Source: a virus
Virus record (IMG/VR): IMGVR_UViG_3300025108_000015
Span: 32,001 to 96,000 of that record
Length of the DNA stretch: 64,000 nt
Strand: one strand, 5' to 3'
The notes beneath the pieces are model-generated. The model was given only the letters and a program-made list of their open reading frames with translations. It was not told the origin of the DNA and ran no database searches. Both the position numbers and the translations under genes were made by a program. Shown here in pieces: positions 9,961-57,216 of the stretch. Each line of letters starts with the position of its first letter. The first letter of the stretch is position 1.

Positions 9961-10877
9961 GTAATTCACTATGGGTTGAGAAGTATCGACCAGACACATT
10001 AGAAGGTTATGTAGGTAACGACCATATCCTTGAGAAGGTAAAGATTTATATCGAGAATGATGACGTACCACACTTACTACTTTATGGAGTAGCAGGTACT
10101 GGTAAAACCACTCTCGCTAAAATCATTACAAACCAAATTGATTGTGATGTTATGTACATTAACGCATCTGATGAAAACTCAGTAGATGCAGTTAGGGATA
10201 AGATTAGAGGGTTCGCATCATCTATGGGATTCCGTAAGTGGAAAGTTGTAATATTAGATGAGTCTGATTACTTAACACCAAACGCACAAGCAGCACTCCG
10301 TAATCTTATGGAGACATTCAGTAAGTCAACACGATTTATCTTAACGTGTAACTATGTGGAGAAGGTAATCGACCCTATCCAATCAAGATGTCAAACATTT
10401 GCTATTGCACCTCCATCAAAGAAGGAAGTAGCTAAACGTTTACACCAAATCTTAAATAAAGAAAGTGTTACGTTTAACAACGAAGACCTTGCCGTGTTGG
10501 TGAATAGTGGATATCCTGATATTCGTAGAGTACTAAACGCAGCACAACGTCAAGTTGTCAAGGGTGAGTTAAAGATTGATACCACATCTACTGTACAAGC
10601 TAATTACACCGATAATGTAATTAAGGTTTTACAAAAAAGTGGTGACATCAAAGAACAATTCACGGAAATCAGACAAATCATCAATGATTCAAAATTAAAG
10701 GATTTTACACCATTGTATCGTTCTCTTTATGACGAGGTAGATAACTACGCAAGTGGTAAAGTGGGTCAGACTATCTTAAACATCGCAGATGGTCAGTACA
10801 AAGACGCAATGGTAGTTGATAAGGAAATCAACGTAATGGCGATGATGTTAAATATATTAATAACAATAGGAAAGTAA
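9957..10877 (+). CDS. Clamp loader AAA+ subunit (RFC small / T4 gp44-like)
   Basis: WVEKYRP, Walker A GVAGTGKTT, NASD, Walker B ILDESD, SRC motif; start at ATG 9957. Confidence 0.93.
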   Translation: MSNSLWVEKYRPDTLEGYVGNDHILEKVKIYIENDDVPHLLLYGVAGTGKTTLAKIITNQIDCDVMYINASDENSVDAVRDKIRGFASSMGFRKWKVVILDESDYLTPNAQAALRNLMETFSKSTRFILTCNYVEKVIDPIQSRCQTFAIAPPSKKEVAKRLHQILNKESVTFNNEDLAVLVNSGYPDIRRVLNAAQRQVVKGELKIDTTSTVQANYTDNVIKVLQKSGDIKEQFTEIRQIINDSKLKDFTPLYRSLYDEVDNYASGKVGQTILNIADGQYKDAMVVDKEINVMAMMLNILITIGK

Positions 10878-10880
10878 ATT

Positions 10881-11051
10881 ATGGCAAATTCAAACGAATT
10901 ATTCGAACAAATGACCGAGCTATTTGCAGACTTCACCGAGTCTCACAATGGAACGACTAAGAAGTCATCTACCCAAGCTAGAAAAGCAATTGGTGAGTTG
11001 AAGAAATTAGTTACTGAGTATCGTAAGGCTTCGGTAGAAGAAAACAAGTAA
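10881..11051 (+). CDS. Histone H1-like (Hc1-type) nucleoid protein, 56 aa; missed by ORF track
   Basis: My translation: MANSNELFEQMTELFADFTESHNGTTKKSSTQARKAIGELKKLVTEYRKASVEENK. It matches the Bacteroidota Hc1-like pattern G.K.A..RARK....L.K...E.RK.S.E. Confidence 0.6.
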   Translation: MANSNELFEQMTELFADFTESHNGTTKKSSTQARKAIGELKKLVTEYRKASVEENK

Positions 11052-35309: not shown

Positions 35310-35465
35310 ATGAGTGGATTGAGTAGATATGAAGAAGCACTTGAACGTTTAATCAAATCGGTTGATGAGAAGTGGTCAGCTTCATATAAAAAATCCATAG
35401 ATTGTAATAACCCAAAAGGCTTTAGTCAAAAAGCACATTGTGCCGGCCGCAAAAAAGGAAAATAG
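35310..35465 (+). CDS. 51-aa protein with EKWS..YKKSIDCNNPKGFSQKAHC motif; missed by ORF track
   Basis: My translation: MSGLSRYEEALERLIKSVDEKWSASYKKSIDCNNPKGFSQKAHCAGRKKGK. I recall this motif from large myophage proteins. Confidence 0.6.
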   Translation: MSGLSRYEEALERLIKSVDEKWSASYKKSIDCNNPKGFSQKAHCAGRKKGK

Positions 35466-35466
35466 T

Positions 35467-36348
35467 ATGTTACTAAAAGTAGGTTCAAAAGGAAACGAAG
35501 TTAAATTATTACAAGAGTTTTTAGAAATTGGCGCAGATGGTATATTCGGTAAAGGAACTGAGAAATCAGTTAAAGAATTCCAAAAAATCAATGGTTTGGT
35601 TGCTGATGGTATCGTTGGCGCTTCCACTTGGGATTGTATGGGTTTGGCTACTACTGATGACTCAGAAAAGACATTCGAAACGGAAAATTGTCTAATTGTT
35701 AATAGACATTACTTACCTAATGGTGAGTATAAATCAGGCCCAACTAATAAAGAGTATATATTCTTACATCATACTGCAGGGTGGCACAACCCATTCAATT
35801 GTATCGACCAATGGGGTAGAGATTCTCGTGGTGCAGTAGCAACTGAATTTGTATTAGGTGGTCCATCAGTAAAAGGTAACAATGAAGACTATGATGGTGT
35901 AATGGTACAAGCATTTCCTGAAGGTGGTTATGGGTGGCACTTAGGTAAGAATGGGTCACAGTATATGCACACACATTCAGTAGGAATTGAAGTGTGTAAC
36001 TTTGGCTGGATTAAAGATGGTAAAACATATGCCGGTACACGAGTTCATGAATCTCAGTTGGTTGAGTTAGACACCCCATTTAGAGGATTCAAAACTTGGC
36101 ACAAATATTCCGATGACCAAATCGAAGCACTTAGAAAGTGGATTCTATGGATTGGTGAGAGAGATAACATTGATGTAAGAAGCGGATTAGTAGAAGAAGT
36201 AAAGAAAAAAGGTGCAGGTGGATTTGAATTCAATGAAGATGCATACTATGGTAGAGTAAAGGGTATGTGGACTCATACTAATACACGTAAAGATAAGTTT
36301 GATATGTTCCCACAACAAGAACTATTAGATATGTTAATCTCTTTATAG
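35467..36348 (+). CDS. N-acetylmuramoyl-L-alanine amidase with N-terminal peptidoglycan-binding domain (endolysin)
   Basis: LKVGSKG..V..LQ..L....DG.FG..T...V..FQ...GL..DGIVG; IFLHHTAG, SVGIEVCN.G, HTN.RKDK.D; ATG 35467. Confidence 0.88.
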   Translation: MLLKVGSKGNEVKLLQEFLEIGADGIFGKGTEKSVKEFQKINGLVADGIVGASTWDCMGLATTDDSEKTFETENCLIVNRHYLPNGEYKSGPTNKEYIFLHHTAGWHNPFNCIDQWGRDSRGAVATEFVLGGPSVKGNNEDYDGVMVQAFPEGGYGWHLGKNGSQYMHTHSVGIEVCNFGWIKDGKTYAGTRVHESQLVELDTPFRGFKTWHKYSDDQIEALRKWILWIGERDNIDVRSGLVEEVKKKGAGGFEFNEDAYYGRVKGMWTHTNTRKDKFDMFPQQELLDMLISL

Positions 36349-36397: not shown

Positions 36398-39355
36398 ATG
36401 AAAAAGTATTTAATTAATTTATTACTATTGTTATTACCAACTGTAACATTAGCACAAGGTACAAGTTGGTTTGAGTTAAAAGTAGAATTTGGTAGATACA
36501 TATTCACCAGTGGAAATGTATATTCAAACGACCAGTCAATTTTAATAAAGCAAGGTAACGATACATTATACTACAAAGACTACGTTTCCTTAACTAATCC
36601 AAGTACTTACAACTACACTATTTTAAATTGTGATACTGGTGATGTTAAGATAATACTTAACTCTAATAGAACTAGATGGTGGGATAATCAAGGTGTACCT
36701 CCGGTTGTGTGGTTACGAAACGCAACTCAAGATACATTTGTAAACATAGCCCCAATGACATTAGGGTTATTTAGTGGTGCAAACTCAGTTTACTCATACG
36801 ATACAACTGTTAATCTCCTATCACAACCACCACCATACGCAGGTTGTATGGATACATTATCTTCAACTTACGACTCTAATGCTAATATTAATAATGGTCA
36901 ATGTAAATATCCTGTAACTTTTGCAGTAGATATGAACTCTTATAATGACACGTTCTCTCAAGTTTATGTAAGTGGGCAGTTTAATAGTTGGAGTGGTATT
37001 GCAGATTCTTTATCTGATTCAGATGGTGATGGTATTTGGACAGGTACTATTGATATACTAAACAATCCAGGTTGGTTATGGAAGTACTCAGTTGATAACT
37101 GGGTTGACCAAGAGTTACCACCAAATATGCAAAACAATCAAAACCCATACGCTACTTGTTTCTTATTAGATGCCGCAGGGTTTACAAATAGAAATCTTAT
37201 TGTAGATGGAACATCAGTAGTATTAGATACTAATTGTTGGGAAAAGTGTTTAGATTGTGCTGATATTATAGGATGTACTGATACCACTTCTGCCGAATAC
37301 AACCCATGGGCTACAATAAGTGATGGGAAGTGTATAGGGAATCCAGCAGATACACTTTCTTGTTCTTCAAGTGAAACTTACTTAGACGTACAATTCACTC
37401 CCGATAACTATGGTAGTGAATCAAGTTGGATTCTTTATGACAATAATGGAGCAGTATATACAGCATCTCAAGGGACCTATTCTGGCGCATCACCAGGTAT
37501 AGCTATATCACATTACATTTGTGTTGATACAAATGTATTAGTAGATATTGTAATTAACGATTCTTATGGTGATGGTTTAAATGGTACTTTATTTGGTGGT
37601 CAAGTAGATGGTGATTTAAAAGTATATGATTGTTCAGGTAATCTATTATGGTCGTTATCTGATACAATTCCAAATGGTAACTTTGGGTATCAATTCACAT
37701 CTCCACAATTTAATACTGGAGGGATATGTTCTTCAGGCGCGTCTGATGTTTATGGGTGTATGAATCCATTCTCAACCACATACAATCCAAGTGCTACAAT
37801 AGACACGGGTACGTGTGGGCCAGCCCGAATAGTAGGATGTACTGACACATCAGCATTCAACTATGTAGATACCGCTAACACCAGTGAGATAATGACTGGC
37901 GATTATACCTTAAAAATAAAAGATGGCGCCTCAAATGGTTGGGGTGGTACTTGGTTAGGTATCAAACAAGGTGATAACTTGTCTCCTCAATTTAAAATGG
38001 GACCAAATGATGGTTATGAATTAACGTTTGATGTACCTTTAAACATCTATGAACCAATTGATTTGTACCTATTTACAACGACTCAATCTCAAAACTCAAT
38101 CGCTCAGATAGCATATACGTTGTATGGTCCTGAAGGTGATACTATTGTAGATGTTCCGTTTTGGGGAGCAACTACATTACAATTCCCCATAATTCAAAGA
38201 GTTGATTCACAACCAACATTTGGTGATGTTTGTATCGAAAAAGTATTCGGATGTACCGATTCAACATCTATTAATTACGATTCATTAGCTAATACCGATG
38301 ATGGTGGGTGTATTCCTGTTATTTTAGGATGTATGAATCCATTGTCATTTAATTACAACCCTAATGCAAATACGCCTGATACTTGTATAGCTATTAAAGT
38401 AGGTTGTACGGATTCAACAATGTGGAATTACGACCCATTAGCAAATACGTCAGGTACTTGTATTCCTTATATCTATGGTTGTACAAACCCATCCTCATTT
38501 AATTATAATGCATTAGCTAACACGGATGATGGTTCATGTGTTCCTGTAATTTATGGGTGTACGGACCCAACATCTTATAATTACGATTCATTAGCTAACA
38601 CGGATGATGGGTCGTGTATCGCTAGAGTGTATGGTTGTACTGATTCAACTTCGTTTAACTTTGACCCATTAGCTAATACTGATAATGGAACTTGTGTTCC
38701 TTACATTTATGGGTGTATGGATGTTAACTCATTTAACTACAATCCTGATGCTAATACAAATCAAGTATCGGCTACTGATTTTTCAAACCCATGTATTCCA
38801 ATTATCTATGGTTGTACTGATTCAACGTCACTTAACTACAACCCATTAGCTAATACTGATAATGGTAGTTGTATTACCCCAATATATGGTTGTACTGACC
38901 CAAATGCTCATAATTATAACCCAAATGCTAATGTTTCTGACACTACGGCGTGTTTATATGATGCTGGGTGTATAGATGGGCCTGGTAACCCATATTGGTT
39001 AAATGACCCATGTTACGCTTGGGTAATTGATGTAGACGAGTATTGTTGTACTAATTCGTGGGACACTGATTGTCAATATCTGTATGATTATTGTGCTACT
39101 GTCAATGGTACTCTTAGTATTGATGATATTGACTTTAAAAATATTGTTGTGTATCCTAACCCAACAACAAATACATTAAATATCAGAACTACCTTGGATA
39201 TTACATATACTTTATACGACTTTATGGGTAAATTGATTGTTGAAAATTCTAAAGAACGAACAATTGATATGTCATCATTAGCAAATGGTGTTTATTTCCT
39301 ATCAATTGAACACCATGGTACACGATTTAATAAAAAAATTGTAAAGGAAGATTAA
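36398..39355 (+). CDS. Secreted repeat protein with a T9SS type-A C-terminal sorting domain
   Basis: Signal peptide ending TLA-Q; CBM48/CBM20-like module (VTFAVDM...VSGQFNSW...D.DGDGIW); 13 GC(T/M)D/N Cys repeats; C-terminal VYPNP...L...D..GK.I...IDMSSL.NGVYFL......KKIVK. Confidence 0.85.
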   Translation: MKKYLINLLLLLLPTVTLAQGTSWFELKVEFGRYIFTSGNVYSNDQSILIKQGNDTLYYKDYVSLTNPSTYNYTILNCDTGDVKIILNSNRTRWWDNQGVPPVVWLRNATQDTFVNIAPMTLGLFSGANSVYSYDTTVNLLSQPPPYAGCMDTLSSTYDSNANINNGQCKYPVTFAVDMNSYNDTFSQVYVSGQFNSWSGIADSLSDSDGDGIWTGTIDILNNPGWLWKYSVDNWVDQELPPNMQNNQNPYATCFLLDAAGFTNRNLIVDGTSVVLDTNCWEKCLDCADIIGCTDTTSAEYNPWATISDGKCIGNPADTLSCSSSETYLDVQFTPDNYGSESSWILYDNNGAVYTASQGTYSGASPGIAISHYICVDTNVLVDIVINDSYGDGLNGTLFGGQVDGDLKVYDCSGNLLWSLSDTIPNGNFGYQFTSPQFNTGGICSSGASDVYGCMNPFSTTYNPSATIDTGTCGPARIVGCTDTSAFNYVDTANTSEIMTGDYTLKIKDGASNGWGGTWLGIKQGDNLSPQFKMGPNDGYELTFDVPLNIYEPIDLYLFTTTQSQNSIAQIAYTLYGPEGDTIVDVPFWGATTLQFPIIQRVDSQPTFGDVCIEKVFGCTDSTSINYDSLANTDDGGCIPVILGCMNPLSFNYNPNANTPDTCIAIKVGCTDSTMWNYDPLANTSGTCIPYIYGCTNPSSFNYNALANTDDGSCVPVIYGCTDPTSYNYDSLANTDDGSCIARVYGCTDSTSFNFDPLANTDNGTCVPYIYGCMDVNSFNYNPDANTNQVSATDFSNPCIPIIYGCTDSTSLNYNPLANTDNGSCITPIYGCTDPNAHNYNPNANVSDTTACLYDAGCIDGPGNPYWLNDPCYAWVIDVDEYCCTNSWDTDCQYLYDYCATVNGTLSIDDIDFKNIVVYPNPTTNTLNIRTTLDITYTLYDFMGKLIVENSKERTIDMSSLANGVYFLSIEHHGTRFNKKIVKED
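38240..38960 (+). repeat. In-frame tandem repeats (9 units of ~25-27 aa, GCTD...NY(D/N)PLANTDDG.C) within the T9SS cargo gene
   Basis: Recurrent ggttgtac(t/g)ga...aattac...ttagctaa(t/c)ac(t/g)gat units; boundaries approximate. Confidence 0.85.
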
Positions 39356-39356
39356 T

Positions 39357-40436
39357 ATGAAAAAGTTATTGTTATTACTGATATTACCTCTTACAATGTC
39401 AGCACAAACTAAAGATGATAAATCAACACTTAGTGATTTCAAAAAGAATTTAAATAAAATTACTAAGTTTGCTACATTCTATGGTGCATATAATGGTAAT
39501 AATTCGATTTCGGATATTACCACATACTCAGTTACGGATGGGCTAAGTACGACAACAACTGTAACTCCTTACGATTACTCAGCAGTATTTGGATTGAGAA
39601 AGATTCAGAGATTTGGATATGAACCAAATATTCAGAATAGGTTTAAGAATGGTACTGAAAACTCATTCTCAGATGCAGCAACCATAGGAAGTAAATCACG
39701 TGGATTCGAGTATTTGTTCGAATTTGATTATAGAAGACAACAAGGTAAGCAGTTCTTAAATCAAGACCACTTTGTAAGATACATTGCAGACAACTATGTA
39801 TTTAAAGTAGAATACTTAGAGGATGGGTTTGCTGATATTGGTTATTTCGAGTCTTCAGAAAGACTTAGACATAAGTTCAATAGAAAGTTTTCAATTAATA
39901 TAGGTGCAATGCAACGTATCTCAGAACCATATGGATTCGACCCATTTGCCGATTGTATAAGACCTGATGGTAGTATCCCATGGATGAAAATAGCTACCGA
40001 TATGGGGTACAATTGGAATACATTGGGGTTGGGTGATGTTTATACAAATCCTAATGGTGAAATAGTAGCTAATAGTACCGCAGTATTCGAAGAAGTGGTT
40101 GTACCACAAATACTTTCAGAGTATGCTAATAACCAAAGAAATCAGTTACCTAACAAATGGGAACACTCATTGGTATTAGGATTTGATTATTACAAATACT
40201 CTAAAAACTTTTGGTTACACTCGTGGGCAAACTTGTTACCATATCACCTTGACTTAGACGATGATTATAGTTACCATAAATTTCACAATGGGCAATGGAT
40301 AGATTATTCAGGTGGACTAATTCTTGGATACCGATTCAATAAGTCATTGGGTATATTTACTGAAGGTAGATATCATCAATATTGGAATCGTAGTTGGTAT
40401 GAATTCTCAACTGGTATAAACTTTATTATATTATAA
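39357..40436 (+). CDS. Putative outer-membrane beta-barrel protein
   Basis: Signal peptide ending MSA-Q; aromatic/Gly-rich alternating strands; C-terminal YEFSTGINFIIL strand. Confidence 0.55.
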   Translation: MKKLLLLLILPLTMSAQTKDDKSTLSDFKKNLNKITKFATFYGAYNGNNSISDITTYSVTDGLSTTTTVTPYDYSAVFGLRKIQRFGYEPNIQNRFKNGTENSFSDAATIGSKSRGFEYLFEFDYRRQQGKQFLNQDHFVRYIADNYVFKVEYLEDGFADIGYFESSERLRHKFNRKFSINIGAMQRISEPYGFDPFADCIRPDGSIPWMKIATDMGYNWNTLGLGDVYTNPNGEIVANSTAVFEEVVVPQILSEYANNQRNQLPNKWEHSLVLGFDYYKYSKNFWLHSWANLLPYHLDLDDDYSYHKFHNGQWIDYSGGLILGYRFNKSLGIFTEGRYHQYWNRSWYEFSTGINFIIL

Positions 40437-40440
40437 TATC

Positions 40441-40674
40441 ATGAAAAACTTTAAAAAAAATATTGGAACATTATTATTGACTATCATAGTAATACTCCAC
40501 ATAATATTCATACATTTAAAGATATCAAGCGTAGAATCTAAGATTCCAACTGACTATGTACCAAGAATGGAATATGAATTAAAAGACCAAATGATTAGAC
40601 AATCGATAAATAATATTTTTGGTGATATTAGAGAAATACAAAAAGAACTTGAAAAAATAGAAGAGGGGAAGTAA
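40441..40674 (+). CDS. Single-TM coiled-coil membrane protein, paralog A
   Basis: N-terminal TM; RMEYELKDQMIR motif. Confidence 0.6.
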   Translation: MKNFKKNIGTLLLTIIVILHIIFIHLKISSVESKIPTDYVPRMEYELKDQMIRQSINNIFGDIREIQKELEKIEEGK

Positions 40675-40677
40675 GTT

Positions 40678-40962
40678 ATGGCTAAGAAGTTAGATGAGGG
40701 AACTCAAATTACTTTAGATTTAAAAACAATAGGAATCATCTTATTCTTTGTTGCCACTGTCGTAGGTATGTGGTTTACATTACAATCTGACATAGAAGAT
40801 GCAAAAGAATTACCAATACCACCCGATCCAGAAGTAACACGGATGGAGTTCGATATGAAAGACCAGATGATTCGTAATACTATTCTTAATACACAAGGTG
40901 ATGTTACTGAGATAAAAGAGGACATGAAGCGTATAGAAGAAAAAATAGATGAGTTGAGGTAA
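40678..40962 (+). CDS. Single-TM coiled-coil membrane protein, paralog B
   Basis: TM segment; RMEFDMKDQMIR motif shared with paralog A. Confidence 0.65.
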   Translation: MAKKLDEGTQITLDLKTIGIILFFVATVVGMWFTLQSDIEDAKELPIPPDPEVTRMEFDMKDQMIRNTILNTQGDVTEIKEDMKRIEEKIDELR

Positions 40963-40963
40963 C

Positions 40964-41293
40964 ATGAAAAAGATACTACTAATATTATCATTACTATTCA
41001 TTACAAATATATCAAAAGCTCAGATAGTTGTAATACACTTCAATGCTGCTTGGAACGAATCTAATTCAGTTAAGTGGGTAGATGGTTTAGAAGATTGTGA
41101 TATAGAACACGTTGATATCGCTAAAAAACCCAAACTACAAAAAGAATATCAAGTAGTAGTAGTACCTACTATTATAATACTTCAGTATGATGAAGTTAAA
41201 AAAAGATACCAAGCTGACTTGAGTTTTAAACTTAGTGCTACAAAAGAAGAAATACAAGATGCAATAGATGAACTTGTACTAAGTGGGTTTTAA
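40964..41293 (+). CDS. Exported thioredoxin-fold protein without CxxC
   Basis: Signal peptide ending SKA-Q; VIHFNAAWN..N at the active-site position; VDI...L..EY.V.VVPTIII (cis-Pro). Confidence 0.65.
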   Translation: MKKILLILSLLFITNISKAQIVVIHFNAAWNESNSVKWVDGLEDCDIEHVDIAKKPKLQKEYQVVVVPTIIILQYDEVKKRYQADLSFKLSATKEEIQDAIDELVLSGF

Positions 41294-41332
41294 CATCGTT
41301 ACATATTTATAATCAATAAGGAGTTACATTAC

Positions 41333-41578
41333 ATGAAAACAATTTGGAGAAAGATTATGGCTTTTAAAGACATTTTTAAAGATGACAACGATGTAAACGA
41401 GAAAAATGTAATAGGATTTCTATCATTTGCAGTAATGGTAATATTCGCAGCTGCCGATTTAATTACTGGTTACTTAGGTAAAGATTTGGTAGTTCAAGAA
41501 TTCATATACAACTCATTTGTGTTTATAACACTTGGTTGTTTTGGCATCGCAGGCTTAGAAAAGTTTGCTAAAAAATAG
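41333..41578 (+). CDS. Two-TM membrane protein (holin-like)
   Basis: Two hydrophobic helices and a basic C-terminus (EKFAKK). Confidence 0.5.
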   Translation: MKTIWRKIMAFKDIFKDDNDVNEKNVIGFLSFAVMVIFAAADLITGYLGKDLVVQEFIYNSFVFITLGCFGIAGLEKFAKK

Positions 41579-41584
41579 TAAAAA

Positions 41585-42229
41585 GTGAAACTTAGTGATA
41601 TAATAGAACTCAAGTCAATGGGGTACTCCGATGAGATTGACCCTAAACACTTGAAGGTGATGAAGGAAACTCCATCTATGTTGGCTGACTTTGAATGGAA
41701 GCAATTCGCAGGTCAACCACCACATGGTAATGATAATTCCAAAACGAAGATGGAACTCCACCAACTTGCTAAACTCCCTATGGATAACTCATTCGTAAAA
41801 GAAATGGATGATATATCTAAAGTATTCAAAGACTATTGTAATACAGTAGATATCGATTACCCAAAAGGATTAGTGGATATATTGATTGACGATTCTCGTA
41901 TTTTCATAACTAAACTTAAATACTTATATAATAGACCACGACCCAAACAATTGGCAAAACACCCAATGGTGAATGTCCCAATGAAGGATACTGAGTTGGA
42001 CTCTATGAATACTCCCTCATATCCAAGCGGACACTCAACTCAAGGTGTGTTAATTGGTTTGGTTTTGAGTGATATGTATCCGGACCATCAACACAATTTA
42101 ATGGACTTAGCAAAAGACATATCATACTCACGAAATGTGGGAAGAGCACACTACCCATCAGACTCAAAGTTTGGTGAAAAGCTTGGTAACGAAATGTTTA
42201 AGTATTTAAAAAAAGTGAAACTAATATAA
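41585..42229 (+). CDS. PAP2 / vanadium-haloperoxidase-like phosphatase
   Basis: K..Y.RPRP, PSYPSGHS, SR..G..HYPSD. Confidence 0.85.
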   Translation: MKLSDIIELKSMGYSDEIDPKHLKVMKETPSMLADFEWKQFAGQPPHGNDNSKTKMELHQLAKLPMDNSFVKEMDDISKVFKDYCNTVDIDYPKGLVDILIDDSRIFITKLKYLYNRPRPKQLAKHPMVNVPMKDTELDSMNTPSYPSGHSTQGVLIGLVLSDMYPDHQHNLMDLAKDISYSRNVGRAHYPSDSKFGEKLGNEMFKYLKKVKLI

Positions 42230-44719: not shown

Positions 44720-45097
44720 ATGGCTAATACGCAAAAAGATATACTTAAAGAAATTCTTGTAGAAATTGCTGAAATGAAGGGTAAGTTACCAAATGGTGAA
44801 CTTAAACGTATGGAAGTGAGTATTAACGAGATGAAAGAAGATTATTCAGACTTAAAGACTGATGTATCTGATATAAAATTTACACTCTTAAATCCTGAAG
44901 ATGGTGTAATAGTACGTGTCAATAAAAACACGGTATATAGATATGACCGCGAAGACAAACAAGAGTACTATGATGGCGTACTAACCGAATTTGAAAAAAT
45001 GAAAGATTGGAAGGATGGTGTTACCAAAGCTCTATGGATTTTATTTGGTTCAATGATAGGTGTACTCGGATACATTATAAAATCCAACTTTATGTGA
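44720..45097 (+). CDS. Coiled-coil protein with a C-terminal TM helix
   Basis: ALWILFGSMIGVLGYII hydrophobic tail. Confidence 0.55.
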   Translation: MANTQKDILKEILVEIAEMKGKLPNGELKRMEVSINEMKEDYSDLKTDVSDIKFTLLNPEDGVIVRVNKNTVYRYDREDKQEYYDGVLTEFEKMKDWKDGVTKALWILFGSMIGVLGYIIKSNFM

Positions 45098-52958: not shown

Positions 52959-54542
52959 ATGGGTAAAGAAGTATTTTACGGAAAGACATCGAGAGAGAAA
53001 CTCTTAGAAGGTGTAGATGCATTAGCAGATGCAGTTGTAGTTACATTAGGACCACGTGGTCGTAACGTGATTATTGAAACTGATACAACACCACATATTA
53101 CAAAGGATGGGGTTACAGTAGCTAAGTCTATTGAATTTACAGACCCAACCAAAAACTTGGGTGCTAAGGTAATCAAAGAAGCATCTCAACAAACTGCTGA
53201 CAACGCAGGTGATGGGACAACTACCTCAACTGTACTTGCACGTGATATCTTTAAAAAAGGTATGGATGCAATTGAAAAGGGAGCTAACCCAATTGAATTG
53301 AAACGTGGGATGGATACTGCAGTAAAAGGTATTGTTAATAATCTTGTTGAAACCATTTCAACTAAAGTAGAAACTAACGACCAAATCAAACAGGTAGCAA
53401 CAATCTCAGCAAATGGTGATTCGGTGATTGGTTCTATGATTGCTGATGCAATGGACCAAGTTGGTCGTGATGGGGTAATTACTGTTGAAGAGGGTAATTC
53501 AAGTGATGATGAACTGACTATTGTAGAGGGGTTGGAATTCGAACAAGGATACCTATCACATTATTTCATTAACAATCAGACCAAATTGACTTCTGAATTA
53601 GAAGACCCTATGATTCTTATGTATGATGGTCGTATTTCAGAAATGGATGACATCGTTGGTATCCTTGAGGGTGTATCAAGTAAGAATCAGGCAATTGTAG
53701 TAATTGCTCAAGAAGTAGATGGGCAAGCGCTAGCTACAATGGTAGTTAATTCGGCACGTCAAACCTTAAAATGTGTTGCTATCAAAGCACCTGGCTTCGG
53801 TAACGAACGTAGTGAGATGTTGAGAGATATGTCTGCTCTAACCGGCGCTACTTTGTTTGGTGGTGTTGGTAAAGAGTTGGAAGATATCACAATGGATGAC
53901 TTAGGGTCAGCTGACAAAGTAGTGGTTAGTAAATCTAAATCAGTAATCATTGGTGGTGCTGGTGAATCGGATGATATCAAACTCCGTATTGACCAAATCA
54001 AGAATGAAATCGAAGAATCGAGTTCAGACTATGAGAAAGAAAAACTACACAAACGATTATCTAAGTTAAGTGGTGGTGTTGCAGTTCTCAGAGTAGGTGC
54101 TGAATCTGAAATCGAGATGAAGGAAAAGAAAGATAGAATTGATGATGCTCTACTTGCTACAAAAGCTGCAGTCGAGGAAGGTATTGTGCCAGGTGGTGGT
54201 TCTGCTCTAATCCACGCAAGTGATAGAATACATATGGGTGTTGATAGATTATCAGCTGACCAAGAAACCGGATTCAATATTGTATGTTCTGCCTGTTACT
54301 CACCTTTTAATTCTATTTTAGAAAATGCAGGTTTAACTTATACACCAGAAGGTGAAACTCAAACTACTTATGGTTATAATGTAGTGACTGAACAATGGTG
54401 TGATATGTTAGAAGTGGGTGTAATTGACCCAACCAAAGTAACACGAACGGCACTTGAAAAAGCTGTCTCAGTTGCATCTACATTACTAACCACGGAATGT
54501 ATGATTGTCAATGAGGTAGAGGATAGTGAATCGGAAGCTTAA
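52959..54542 (+). CDS. groEL: Chaperonin GroEL
   Basis: TLGPRGRNV, ITKDGVTVAK, GDGTTT, KAPGFG, GGVAV, GIVPGGG, IDPTKVTR; no GGM tail. Confidence 0.97.
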   Translation: MGKEVFYGKTSREKLLEGVDALADAVVVTLGPRGRNVIIETDTTPHITKDGVTVAKSIEFTDPTKNLGAKVIKEASQQTADNAGDGTTTSTVLARDIFKKGMDAIEKGANPIELKRGMDTAVKGIVNNLVETISTKVETNDQIKQVATISANGDSVIGSMIADAMDQVGRDGVITVEEGNSSDDELTIVEGLEFEQGYLSHYFINNQTKLTSELEDPMILMYDGRISEMDDIVGILEGVSSKNQAIVVIAQEVDGQALATMVVNSARQTLKCVAIKAPGFGNERSEMLRDMSALTGATLFGGVGKELEDITMDDLGSADKVVVSKSKSVIIGGAGESDDIKLRIDQIKNEIEESSSDYEKEKLHKRLSKLSGGVAVLRVGAESEIEMKEKKDRIDDALLATKAAVEEGIVPGGGSALIHASDRIHMGVDRLSADQETGFNIVCSACYSPFNSILENAGLTYTPEGETQTTYGYNVVTEQWCDMLEVGVIDPTKVTRTALEKAVSVASTLLTTECMIVNEVEDSESEA

Positions 54543-56740: not shown

Positions 56741-57028
56741 ATGGGTAGTTTAAAATCAAAATACAAACGAGATAAGTCGGAGCTAATAGAAACGTTATTA
56801 GATAATGGGCGAACTACTGCTGTATTGGAGATAAATGTTCTTACGACATCTAAAATCAAAGAACATTTAATCTACGAATGTATTTACTTACATAATAGTA
56901 AATTAAAGACTACTCAGATTATTGCTAAGGATATTACCGATGCAATGAGTAGATTAGACCCTTTTATAAAATCAGGCGCATCGAGCTCAGTAATTAATTA
57001 TGTTTTGAATAACGAGAACATAATATGA
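56741..57028 (+). CDS. Hypothetical protein
   Basis: Clean ORF. Confidence 0.5.
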   Translation: MGSLKSKYKRDKSELIETLLDNGRTTAVLEINVLTTSKIKEHLIYECIYLHNSKLKTTQIIAKDITDAMSRLDPFIKSGASSSVINYVLNNENII

Positions 57029-57216
57029 AAGATAAGATAGTATTTCTTTTATCAGTAGGTGTAATCCTTTTACTTGGAATGTTAATAATAGGGGATTTTA
57101 TTATCTCTCTAAAAGAAAACAGGCCAGTAGATGAATCAATTATACATTTGATACAAGTATCAATCACAGGTGTAATAGGAATATTAGGAACTTACTTTGG
57201 AATGAAAAACAAATAA
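57025..57216 (+). CDS. Small two-TM membrane protein
   Basis: Two hydrophobic helices. Confidence 0.55.
   Translation: MKDKIVFLLSVGVILLLGMLIIGDFIISLKENRPVDESIIHLIQVSITGVIGILGTYFGMKNK

Follow-up and report, generated by a model that had tools for sequence, protein, structure and literature searches.

A gene trio for a predicted outer-membrane barrel, a coiled-coil membrane protein and a thioredoxin fold beside lysis genes of marine phages: a possible spanin analogue

Organization of the locus

We analysed a 64,000-nucleotide window of viral DNA (bases 32095–96094 of the 172,976-bp IMG/VR virus record IMGVR_UViG_3300025108_000015, whose completeness is estimated at 90%) and, within it, a run of small genes for envelope proteins that we call barrel, tmA, tmB, trx and hol. 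The source is a large uncultured marine phage of flavobacteria-type hosts. A preliminary description of this DNA had noted five tightly packed genes behind a gene for a type IX secretion system (T9SS) cargo, and had offered two roles for them, an unusual lysis or spanin-like system and a dedicated surface-display module. The five open reading frames (ORFs) are indeed present (Table 1). All genes in this part of the window lie on the plus strand, in the order GT2 (family 2) glycosyltransferase, three small ORFs, endolysin, cargo, barrel, tmA, tmB, trx and hol. The stop codon of cargo is separated from the ATG of barrel by 1 nucleotide, and the spacers between barrel, tmA, tmB, trx and hol are 4, 3, 1 and 39 nucleotides. 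We found that three of these genes, barrel, tmB and trx (hereafter the trio), recur beside lysis genes in many unrelated ocean phages.

Table 1. Features of the locus and of related loci. Positions are those of the window or, for homologues, of the contig named.
Feature	Sequence	Coordinates	Strand	Description
endolysin	window	35440–36348	+	Pfam PG_binding_1 and Amidase_2
cargo	window	36398–39355	+	985 residues; T9SS type A sorting domain, 41 Cys
barrel	window	39357–40436	+	359 residues; predicted outer-membrane beta-barrel
tmA	window	40441–40674	+	77 residues; tmB paralogue, N-terminal transmembrane segment
tmB	window	40678–40962	+	94 residues; predicted bitopic inner-membrane protein
trx	window	40964–41293	+	109 residues; exported thioredoxin fold without redox site
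hol	window	41333–41578	+	81 residues; two transmembrane segments; holin/antiholin candidate
PAP2-family phosphatase	window	41585–42229	+	Pfam 4e-10; directly after hol
125-residue protein	window	44720–45097		coiled-coil-like N-terminal region, C-terminal transmembrane tail anchor
GroEL	window	52959–54542		
63-residue membrane protein	window	57025–57216		near GroEL
barrel homologue	L176	5890–6984		lipobox-like signal
barrel homologue	L101	5634–6680		lipobox-like signal
barrel homologue	L106	73–1149		lipobox-like signal
barrel homologue	L097	5126–6181		lipobox-like signal
extra genes between barrel and tmB	L189	6982–7682		small phage
extra genes between barrel and tmB	L191	6829–7724		small phage
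gp187/gp186 pair	L050 (immuto)	10365–11028		see text

Properties of the encoded proteins

The AlphaFold2 model of barrel, built on a 48-sequence alignment that included distant representatives, has a predicted local distance difference test score (pLDDT) of 83.5 and a predicted template modelling score (pTM) of 0.75; an earlier model from 21 sequences reached a pLDDT of 63.8 and was judged mediocre. In this model there are 14 long strands, together with a structured insert near residues 190–266 that has a helix at 241–262, and a low-confidence connection at 83–115. The structural matches, NanC, OmpG, CymA, TamA, autotransporter beta-domains and PorV, are outer-membrane barrels throughout, and none stands out (Foldseek against NanC, 1.5e-5); a soluble barrel, one of the two outcomes that would have spoken against the preliminary description, is thus not predicted. 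In the VIA comparison, CymA, TamA and OmpG match at a Z score of about 10. Barrel thus carries the general marks of an outer-membrane beta-barrel, namely a signal peptide, a closed antiparallel barrel in the model and a hydrophobic or aromatic C-terminal residue (...IIL or ...IIF). The signal peptide ends in A↓Q, and Q17 is invariant in 21 homologues.

Barrel could not be placed in a known family. It has no match above threshold in Pfam, PHROG or NCBIfam, and none of 10 barrel representatives scanned had a Pfam domain above the cut-off. Assignment to a specific structural family was rejected, as both models fit generic 12–16-strand outer-membrane barrels only, and so was identity with PorV (6h3i_F), whose Z score of 8–10 is no better than that of unrelated barrels. 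PorP/SprF identity was discarded as well: hhalign of the barrel alignment (A1) against five PorP/SprF proteins of a Winogradskyella metagenome-assembled genome (MAG) gave a probability of 1.2%, with the signal peptide alone aligned, and a PF11751 match was absent at E≤0.1. Residues 81–111 carry 12 of the 74 invariant columns of A1. Given 14 strands and a periplasmic N-terminus, the 83–115 region is predicted to be a periplasmic turn, and this conserved turn may be a binding site.

In some barrel homologues a lipobox-like signal (..L-A/T-S/A-C) and a conserved AAPK-x-CC precede the usual Gln (Table 1), which suggests that lipidated or doubly processed variants exist. In the small-phage lineage L047, described below, a separate 66-residue lipoprotein-like ORF overlaps the barrel start.

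The two adjacent transmembrane (TM) proteins, in which a shared motif had been noticed, proved to be paralogues (BLASTP E 3e-14, 40% identity), with the common motif R-M-E-(Y/F)-(E/D)-(L/M)-K-D-Q-M-I-R. Each has an N-in single TM helix followed by a periplasmic helix with a heptad pattern. In tmA the TM segment is at residues 8–26 and is followed by the C-terminal helix; tmA was found in the window and in three other loci (L001, L003 and L005) only, and appears to be a recent local duplicate restricted to the closest relatives. Hydropathy and charge analysis places the TM helix of tmB at residues 17–35, N-in by charge bias; it is followed by a Pro-rich linker (PIPPDPEV) and then an amphipathic periplasmic helix with V75, I78, M82, I85, I89 and L92 at heptad positions. 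An R-x-E...K motif is invariant in the tmB alignment (A3). An N-terminal TM segment with a periplasmic domain of coiled-coil type is the architecture of an i-spanin. Nevertheless, Pfam, PHROG and NCBIfam gave no spanin match for tmA, tmB or trx, and nothing at all above threshold for tmA and tmB; one distant tmB homologue, from lineage L047, weakly matches phrog_739 (E 0.0058).

The thioredoxin fold that the preliminary description assigned to trx is borne out by profile comparison with thioredoxins of known structure (2vim, E 4.8e-7) and by Pfam Thioredoxin (1.5e-4 here; 2.3e-10 and 40.8 bits against PF00085, cut-off 23.5 bits, for the L047 homologue). The protein lacks the CxxC redox site of the superfamily: WNESN stands at the position of WCGPC, with no Cys at the site. 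W30 and N31 do not vary among 20 trx homologues, and the conservation of N34 is at least 90%; the cis-Pro (P68) has been kept, and the C-terminal Phe is likewise invariant. Its signal peptide belongs to the signal peptidase I (SPase I) type, A↓Q, with Q20 invariant in the 20 homologues, and there is no lipobox. A second, separate trx-family match lies about 5–6 kb downstream of the module in five loci (L083, L084, L086, L098 and L142), beside ORFs of 154 and 260 residues.

Cargo has the features of a T9SS type A substrate, an N-terminal signal peptide (cleavage TLA↓QG) and a C-terminal Por_Secre_tail (PF18962, 4.7e-15; TIGR04183, 1.6e-13), which makes its C-terminal domain (CTD) type A. Members of the cargo family have 675–1325 residues, 30–63 Cys, an A↓Q signal peptide and a PNPT motif in the CTD. 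Cargo, barrel and trx are therefore all cleaved before Gln, as had been described; Gln after the SPase I site is a habit of Bacteroidota. Receptor masking through a shared tail-fibre domain was considered and dropped, as cargo has no similarity to the neighbouring large, presumably tail-fibre, proteins.

By domain content (PG_binding_1, 7e-13; Amidase_2, 3e-10; PHROG endolysin families) the endolysin is predicted to be an N-acetylmuramoyl-L-alanine amidase. No signal, signal-anchor-release (SAR) or TM segment was detected in it. Translation probably begins at the ATG at 35467, for a protein of 293 residues, the length of the orthologues in relatives.

Hol is holin-like, as first described. Its TM segments are at residues 26–44 and 57–75, N-in and C-in by charge bias, and its C-terminus is basic; small size, this topology, a charged C-terminus and, in relatives, a place next to the endolysin are the features of a class II-like holin. 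No holin family in Pfam, PHROG or NCBIfam matched hol. Its homologue in Flavobacterium phage vB_FspM_immuto (hereafter immuto), gp192, is 57% identical and is encoded directly 5′ of the endolysin gp191 (phrog_181, 3e-63) and the annotated holin gp190, and the usual order in relatives is likewise hol–endolysin–holin. A homologue of the 140-residue holin of Phage_holin_4_1 type was not found in the 90%-complete genome, which leaves hol as the only holin candidate beside the amidase. The PAP2 phosphatase follows hol only in this phage and in its near-identical relative L001; other relatives have a 140–150-residue Phage_holin_4_1-like holin and two small genes at this position.

The only small membrane proteins near the endolysin are tmA, tmB and hol. 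A lipobox scan from all start sites of the 173-kb genome revealed no credible o-spanin or u-spanin ORF. Weak matches to TssN and TssO (E 5.6e-4 and 0.026) were set aside as a probable effect of membrane-protein composition. Scans for sigma-70, terminator and T4 late-promoter motifs scored no better than shuffles.

Association of the trio with lysis genes

We searched IMG/VR for relatives of the trio. The single barrel protein found 47 loci, the trx alignment 284 stretches and the tmB alignment at least 590; scans with two distant barrels (P0031 and P0034) and with alignment A6 found no IMG/VR loci. ORFs were called on 177 loci and labelled with hidden Markov models (HMMs). The unique trx-anchored instances numbered 107, a count that two more scans raised to 119, and their contigs are 15–170 kb long. 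These counts were built from the best 80 loci per scan by score, and relatives of the source phage are therefore over-represented in them.

Barrel and tmB both lie within six genes of trx in 98 of the 119 unique instances, and most of the others are cut by contig ends. tmB is always directly 5′ of trx, even where the order is cyclically permuted: cargo–barrel–tmB–trx is the commonest arrangement, and barrel–tmB–trx–cargo and tmB–trx–cargo–barrel also occur. The gene order is thus conserved across phage contigs far beyond chance, as the preliminary description would lead one to expect. Cargo is near the trio in 83 of the 119.

The neighbourhood was read in the 34 well-flanked instances, with at least four genes on each side. 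An endolysin gene is directly adjacent in 15 of them and within four genes in 20, and a holin-like gene is directly adjacent in 17 and within three genes in 25. By our own rough estimate, assuming genomes of 45–250 genes with one endolysin each, chance proximity of an endolysin would be about 6–27%. The endolysins belong to three non-homologous families: Amidase_2, a 202-residue phrog_33083 type (1.6e-14), and Peptidase_M15_3 (4e-23; phrog_894, 5e-41). The holins belong to two, phrog_3427/GTA_holin_3TM and a 140-residue family with a weak Phage_holin_4_1 match (E 0.0015), which by reading of the sequences, unscored, appears homologous to immuto gp190. The swapping of endolysin and holin families around a constant trio is the mosaic pattern typical of lysis cassettes.

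Two lineages separate the trio from the large cargo. The L047 lineage comprises 11 contigs of a small phage whose barrel is 36% identical; its genes run barrel, a secreted Cys-rich protein of 161–236 residues, a 60-residue protein with two TM segments, tmB, trx, endolysin (phrog_33083) and holin (phrog_3427, 1.9e-26), and a 169-residue protein is among those between barrel and tmB. The L196 lineage has hol followed by three basic proteins, then barrel, tmB and trx, and after these Peptidase_M15_3 and holin, with neither cargo nor a Cys-rich neighbour. Because both lineages keep the trio with endolysin and holin without the large cargo, the conserved core is barrel–tmB–trx, tied to lysis genes, and the large T9SS cargo is a common but non-obligatory partner.

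The secreted Cys-rich protein of the L047 lineage has a DCxDGSDE motif like that of low-density lipoprotein (LDL) receptor class A and a C-terminus that resembles a short sorting domain; its neighbour with two TM segments has 60–62 residues. Table 1 gives the position of these two extra genes in loci L189 and L191.

Distribution of the family

The barrel profile matched 430 representatives (E≤1e-3) in a library of 1.84 billion sequences that is clustered at 50% identity. The nearest Protein Atlas clusters of barrel and tmB are all viral. Among 50,697 cultured-phage records, searched as DNA and with tblastn, there was no match to the window region, to barrel, to tmB or to two distant barrels; cultured relatives were found for hol only.

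We looked for the barrel family in host genomes. Barrel was not found in any of 400 sampled Flavobacteriaceae genomes (0/400), and the single match in species-representative genomes was on a 7.6-kb phage-like contig (L049, NZ_JABDKL010000125.1) in a Winogradskyella MAG, with the order barrel–(tmB)–trx–178-residue protein–hol–endolysin–holin. This contig looks like a phage fragment and not a host locus, and gives a weak hint of a Winogradskyella host. A host origin of barrel is thus ruled out for the genomes searched, and, judged by these matches, the family appears restricted to viruses.

Possible functions of the trio

We know of no established route by which Bacteroidota phages pass the outer membrane at lysis. 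The 'spanin-less' phages listed by Kongari et al. 2018 (PMC6139136) include Bacteroides phages and phages of the marine flavobacterium Croceibacter, and a 2025 survey (PMC12596118) states that Bacteroidetes phages use unimolecular spanins only. In full-text literature searches no account turned up of a lysis cassette that combines a barrel with coiled-coil and thioredoxin proteins.

The trio resembles two-component spanins (lambda Rz/Rz1, T4 PseT.3/PseT.2) in several respects: the i-spanin has the topology of tmB, an exported protein is encoded by the next gene, the pair lies beside endolysin and holin, and the step of lysis proposed here, at the outer membrane, is the same. However, the o-spanin is a lipoprotein with a lipobox, whereas trx has an SPase I signal and is a soluble protein of thioredoxin fold, and spanins have no counterpart to the phage-encoded outer-membrane beta-barrel. 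In addition, tmB has no sequence homology to i-spanins, is unusually highly conserved and, at 94 residues, is shorter than known i-spanins (117–153 residues; see also PMC6139136).

The reading that we prefer, tentatively and with slightly less than even confidence, is that the stretch is the envelope part of a phage lysis cassette, in which the trio would be an envelope-spanning, spanin-analogous device and cargo a lineage-specific add-on. tmB, with its anchor in the inner membrane, would oligomerize through the C-terminal heptads. In the periplasm trx would act as connector, in place of the lipoprotein o-spanin, and barrel would be an outer-membrane anchor supplied by the phage. Expressed late in infection, the three would contact one another and assemble into a bridge from the inner membrane through the periplasm to the outer membrane. 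Hol would let the amidase destroy the peptidoglycan, and the bridge would then disrupt or fuse the outer membrane, a step equivalent to the spanin step in phages of Proteobacteria. In the T4-like lineage of the source phage, the T9SS-secreted Cys-rich cargo would join the trio as a fourth component, with barrel probably retaining it at the cell surface. It is possible, though we hold this more tentatively still, that the trio represents a new, third class of phage machinery for breaching the outer membrane, alongside spanins and disruptin-type peptides: a three-part bridge with its own barrel anchor and a redox-dead thioredoxin connector, coupled in some lineages to a T9SS-exported surface protein.

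Of the two roles first offered, the lysis or spanin-like one gains support from context, as the trio lies beside three endolysin and two holin families in unrelated phages and the homologue of hol abuts the immuto endolysin. Several observations nonetheless weigh against a spanin-analogous device. There is no homology to any spanin family beyond the weak phrog_739 match (E 0.0058), and the periplasmic part of tmB, about 59 residues, is too short to span the periplasm alone. tmB is 64–91% identical where barrel is 51–85%; spanins usually diverge fast, and conservation this high hints at a conserved host partner. No endolysin was recognized within six genes in 14 of the 34 well-flanked instances, several of which have a nearby holin or an amidase-like ORF (NRIIIHCSAT-type motif, seen by eye and unscored). 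Late genes also cluster for reasons beyond shared function, and a secreted, lectin-like cargo of about 1000 residues has no obvious job in lysis.

The other role first offered was a module for handling and displaying the T9SS cargo. Barrel would anchor or escort cargo, the redox-dead trx would be its chaperone and tmB a tether, for receptor masking, superinfection exclusion or adhesion, with the lysis genes mere neighbours in a late operon. The 1-nucleotide distance between the cargo stop and the barrel start fits such a module, as do the presence of cargo near the trio in 83 of 119 instances, cargo–barrel–tmB–trx being the commonest order, and the 41 Cys of cargo. There are precedents too. 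Cargos of T9SS type B work with PorP/SprF-like barrels encoded next to them, and TraF of the F plasmid is a periplasmic thioredoxin fold without CxxC that works with Cys-rich partners. Phage T9SS cargos have already been described (PMC7468147). Set against this, the trio of the L196 lineage has neither cargo nor a Cys-rich neighbour, that of L047 has only an unrelated Cys-rich protein of 161–236 residues, and the linkage to endolysin and holin persists where cargo is absent. Moreover, barrel shows no relationship to PorP/SprF (the hhalign result above), the cargo CTD is type A and not type B, and cargo shares no domain with the neighbouring large proteins. We therefore consider a dedicated display module unlikely, and as a general role the proposed pairing of a barrel anchor with a trx chaperone for the Cys-rich cargo is not supported. 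Since cargo and barrel are translationally coupled, display may still be a lineage-specific add-on in this phage.

A device for lysis timing or superinfection control, with tmB and tmA as antiholin-like periplasmic sensors, hol as a holin/antiholin partner, and barrel and trx sensing or blocking incoming phage, seems to us doubtful and quite improbable. T4 RI, at 97 residues, is close in size and topology to tmB, whose N-terminal TM segment is followed by a helical domain in the periplasm. Conservation is highest in tmB and hol, as would be expected if they touched a holin or host machinery, and in many relatives hol co-occurs with a second, Phage_holin_4_1-like holin in the pattern of a holin/antiholin pair. 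Yet homology to RI, Imm or Sp is lacking, the trio occurs in small phages that are not T4-like, and an outer-membrane barrel with a periplasmic thioredoxin fold is without precedent in lysis inhibition; hol is also separable from the trio, immuto having hol without it. Finally, the genes could be unrelated neighbours with independent functions, brought together by chance in a late region that is compact. The lack of an assigned function for any member, and of evidence for interaction, fits this, but the fixed adjacency in 119 unique instances, across several phage types and through cyclic permutations, makes such an accident highly implausible.

Ocean viromes contain the trio in abundance (tmB has at least 590 matches in IMG/VR, and barrel has 430 representatives), and it sits at the spanin position. 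If it carries out the outer-membrane step of lysis, it would be a new class of lysis protein made from an outer-membrane barrel and a dead thioredoxin, would improve the annotation of many marine phage genomes and would, because the A↓Q signal peptide is invariant, serve as a marker for Bacteroidota hosts. If instead its task is to handle T9SS cargo, it would be the first case of a phage encoding an accessory set for a secretion system of its host.

Related systems and neighbouring genes

Systems of the SprB/SprF type share with this locus an outer-membrane barrel gene directly 3′ of, and coupled to, the gene for its cargo, in a Bacteroidota-type system. They differ from it in that barrel is unrelated to PorP/SprF and the trio persists without cargo; PorP/SprF proteins are partners of cargos with type B CTDs, whereas the cargo here is type A (TIGR04183). 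F-plasmid TraF resembles trx as a periplasmic thioredoxin fold without redox Cys in an envelope-spanning assembly, but no specific relationship between the two is detectable, and the contexts are conjugation and phage lysis. The 'Cryophage' of Bellas et al. 2020 (PMC7468147) is, like the source phage, a phage of a Bacteroidota host with proteins bearing the type A T9SS sorting domain, there on variable enzymes and PA14 proteins; a term search of that text found neither 'beta-barrel' nor 'lysis', and 'outer membrane' once, in the description of the T9SS.

The closest cultured comparison is immuto (NC_055915, gp192–gp185). Like immuto, the source phage encodes a family B DNA polymerase and GroEL. 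Common to both phage groups, and syntenic, are the hol homologue, the Phage_holin_4_1-like holin and a membrane protein of 380–400 residues (cluster 6/gp185). Immuto differs in its GH19-type endolysin and in the absence of barrel and tmB by tblastn; no cargo is annotated in the region read, and cargo was not searched against cultured phages. Downstream of its holin, instead of the trio, immuto has an overlapping pair, gp187 and gp186. In L050, the immuto locus (Table 1), gp187 is a protein of 116 residues with an N-terminal TM segment and a coiled coil, and gp186 one of 133 residues with an A↓Q-type signal and a C-terminal TM segment. This architecture is spanin-like, with no lipobox and no spanin family match.

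Two further small proteins of the source phage may be mentioned. The 125-residue tail-anchored protein encoded downstream of the PAP2 phosphatase has no family match. The 63-residue membrane protein, encoded 15 kb from the endolysin, resembles by eye immuto gp189, which is annotated as YneF-like and is encoded directly 3′ of the immuto holin.

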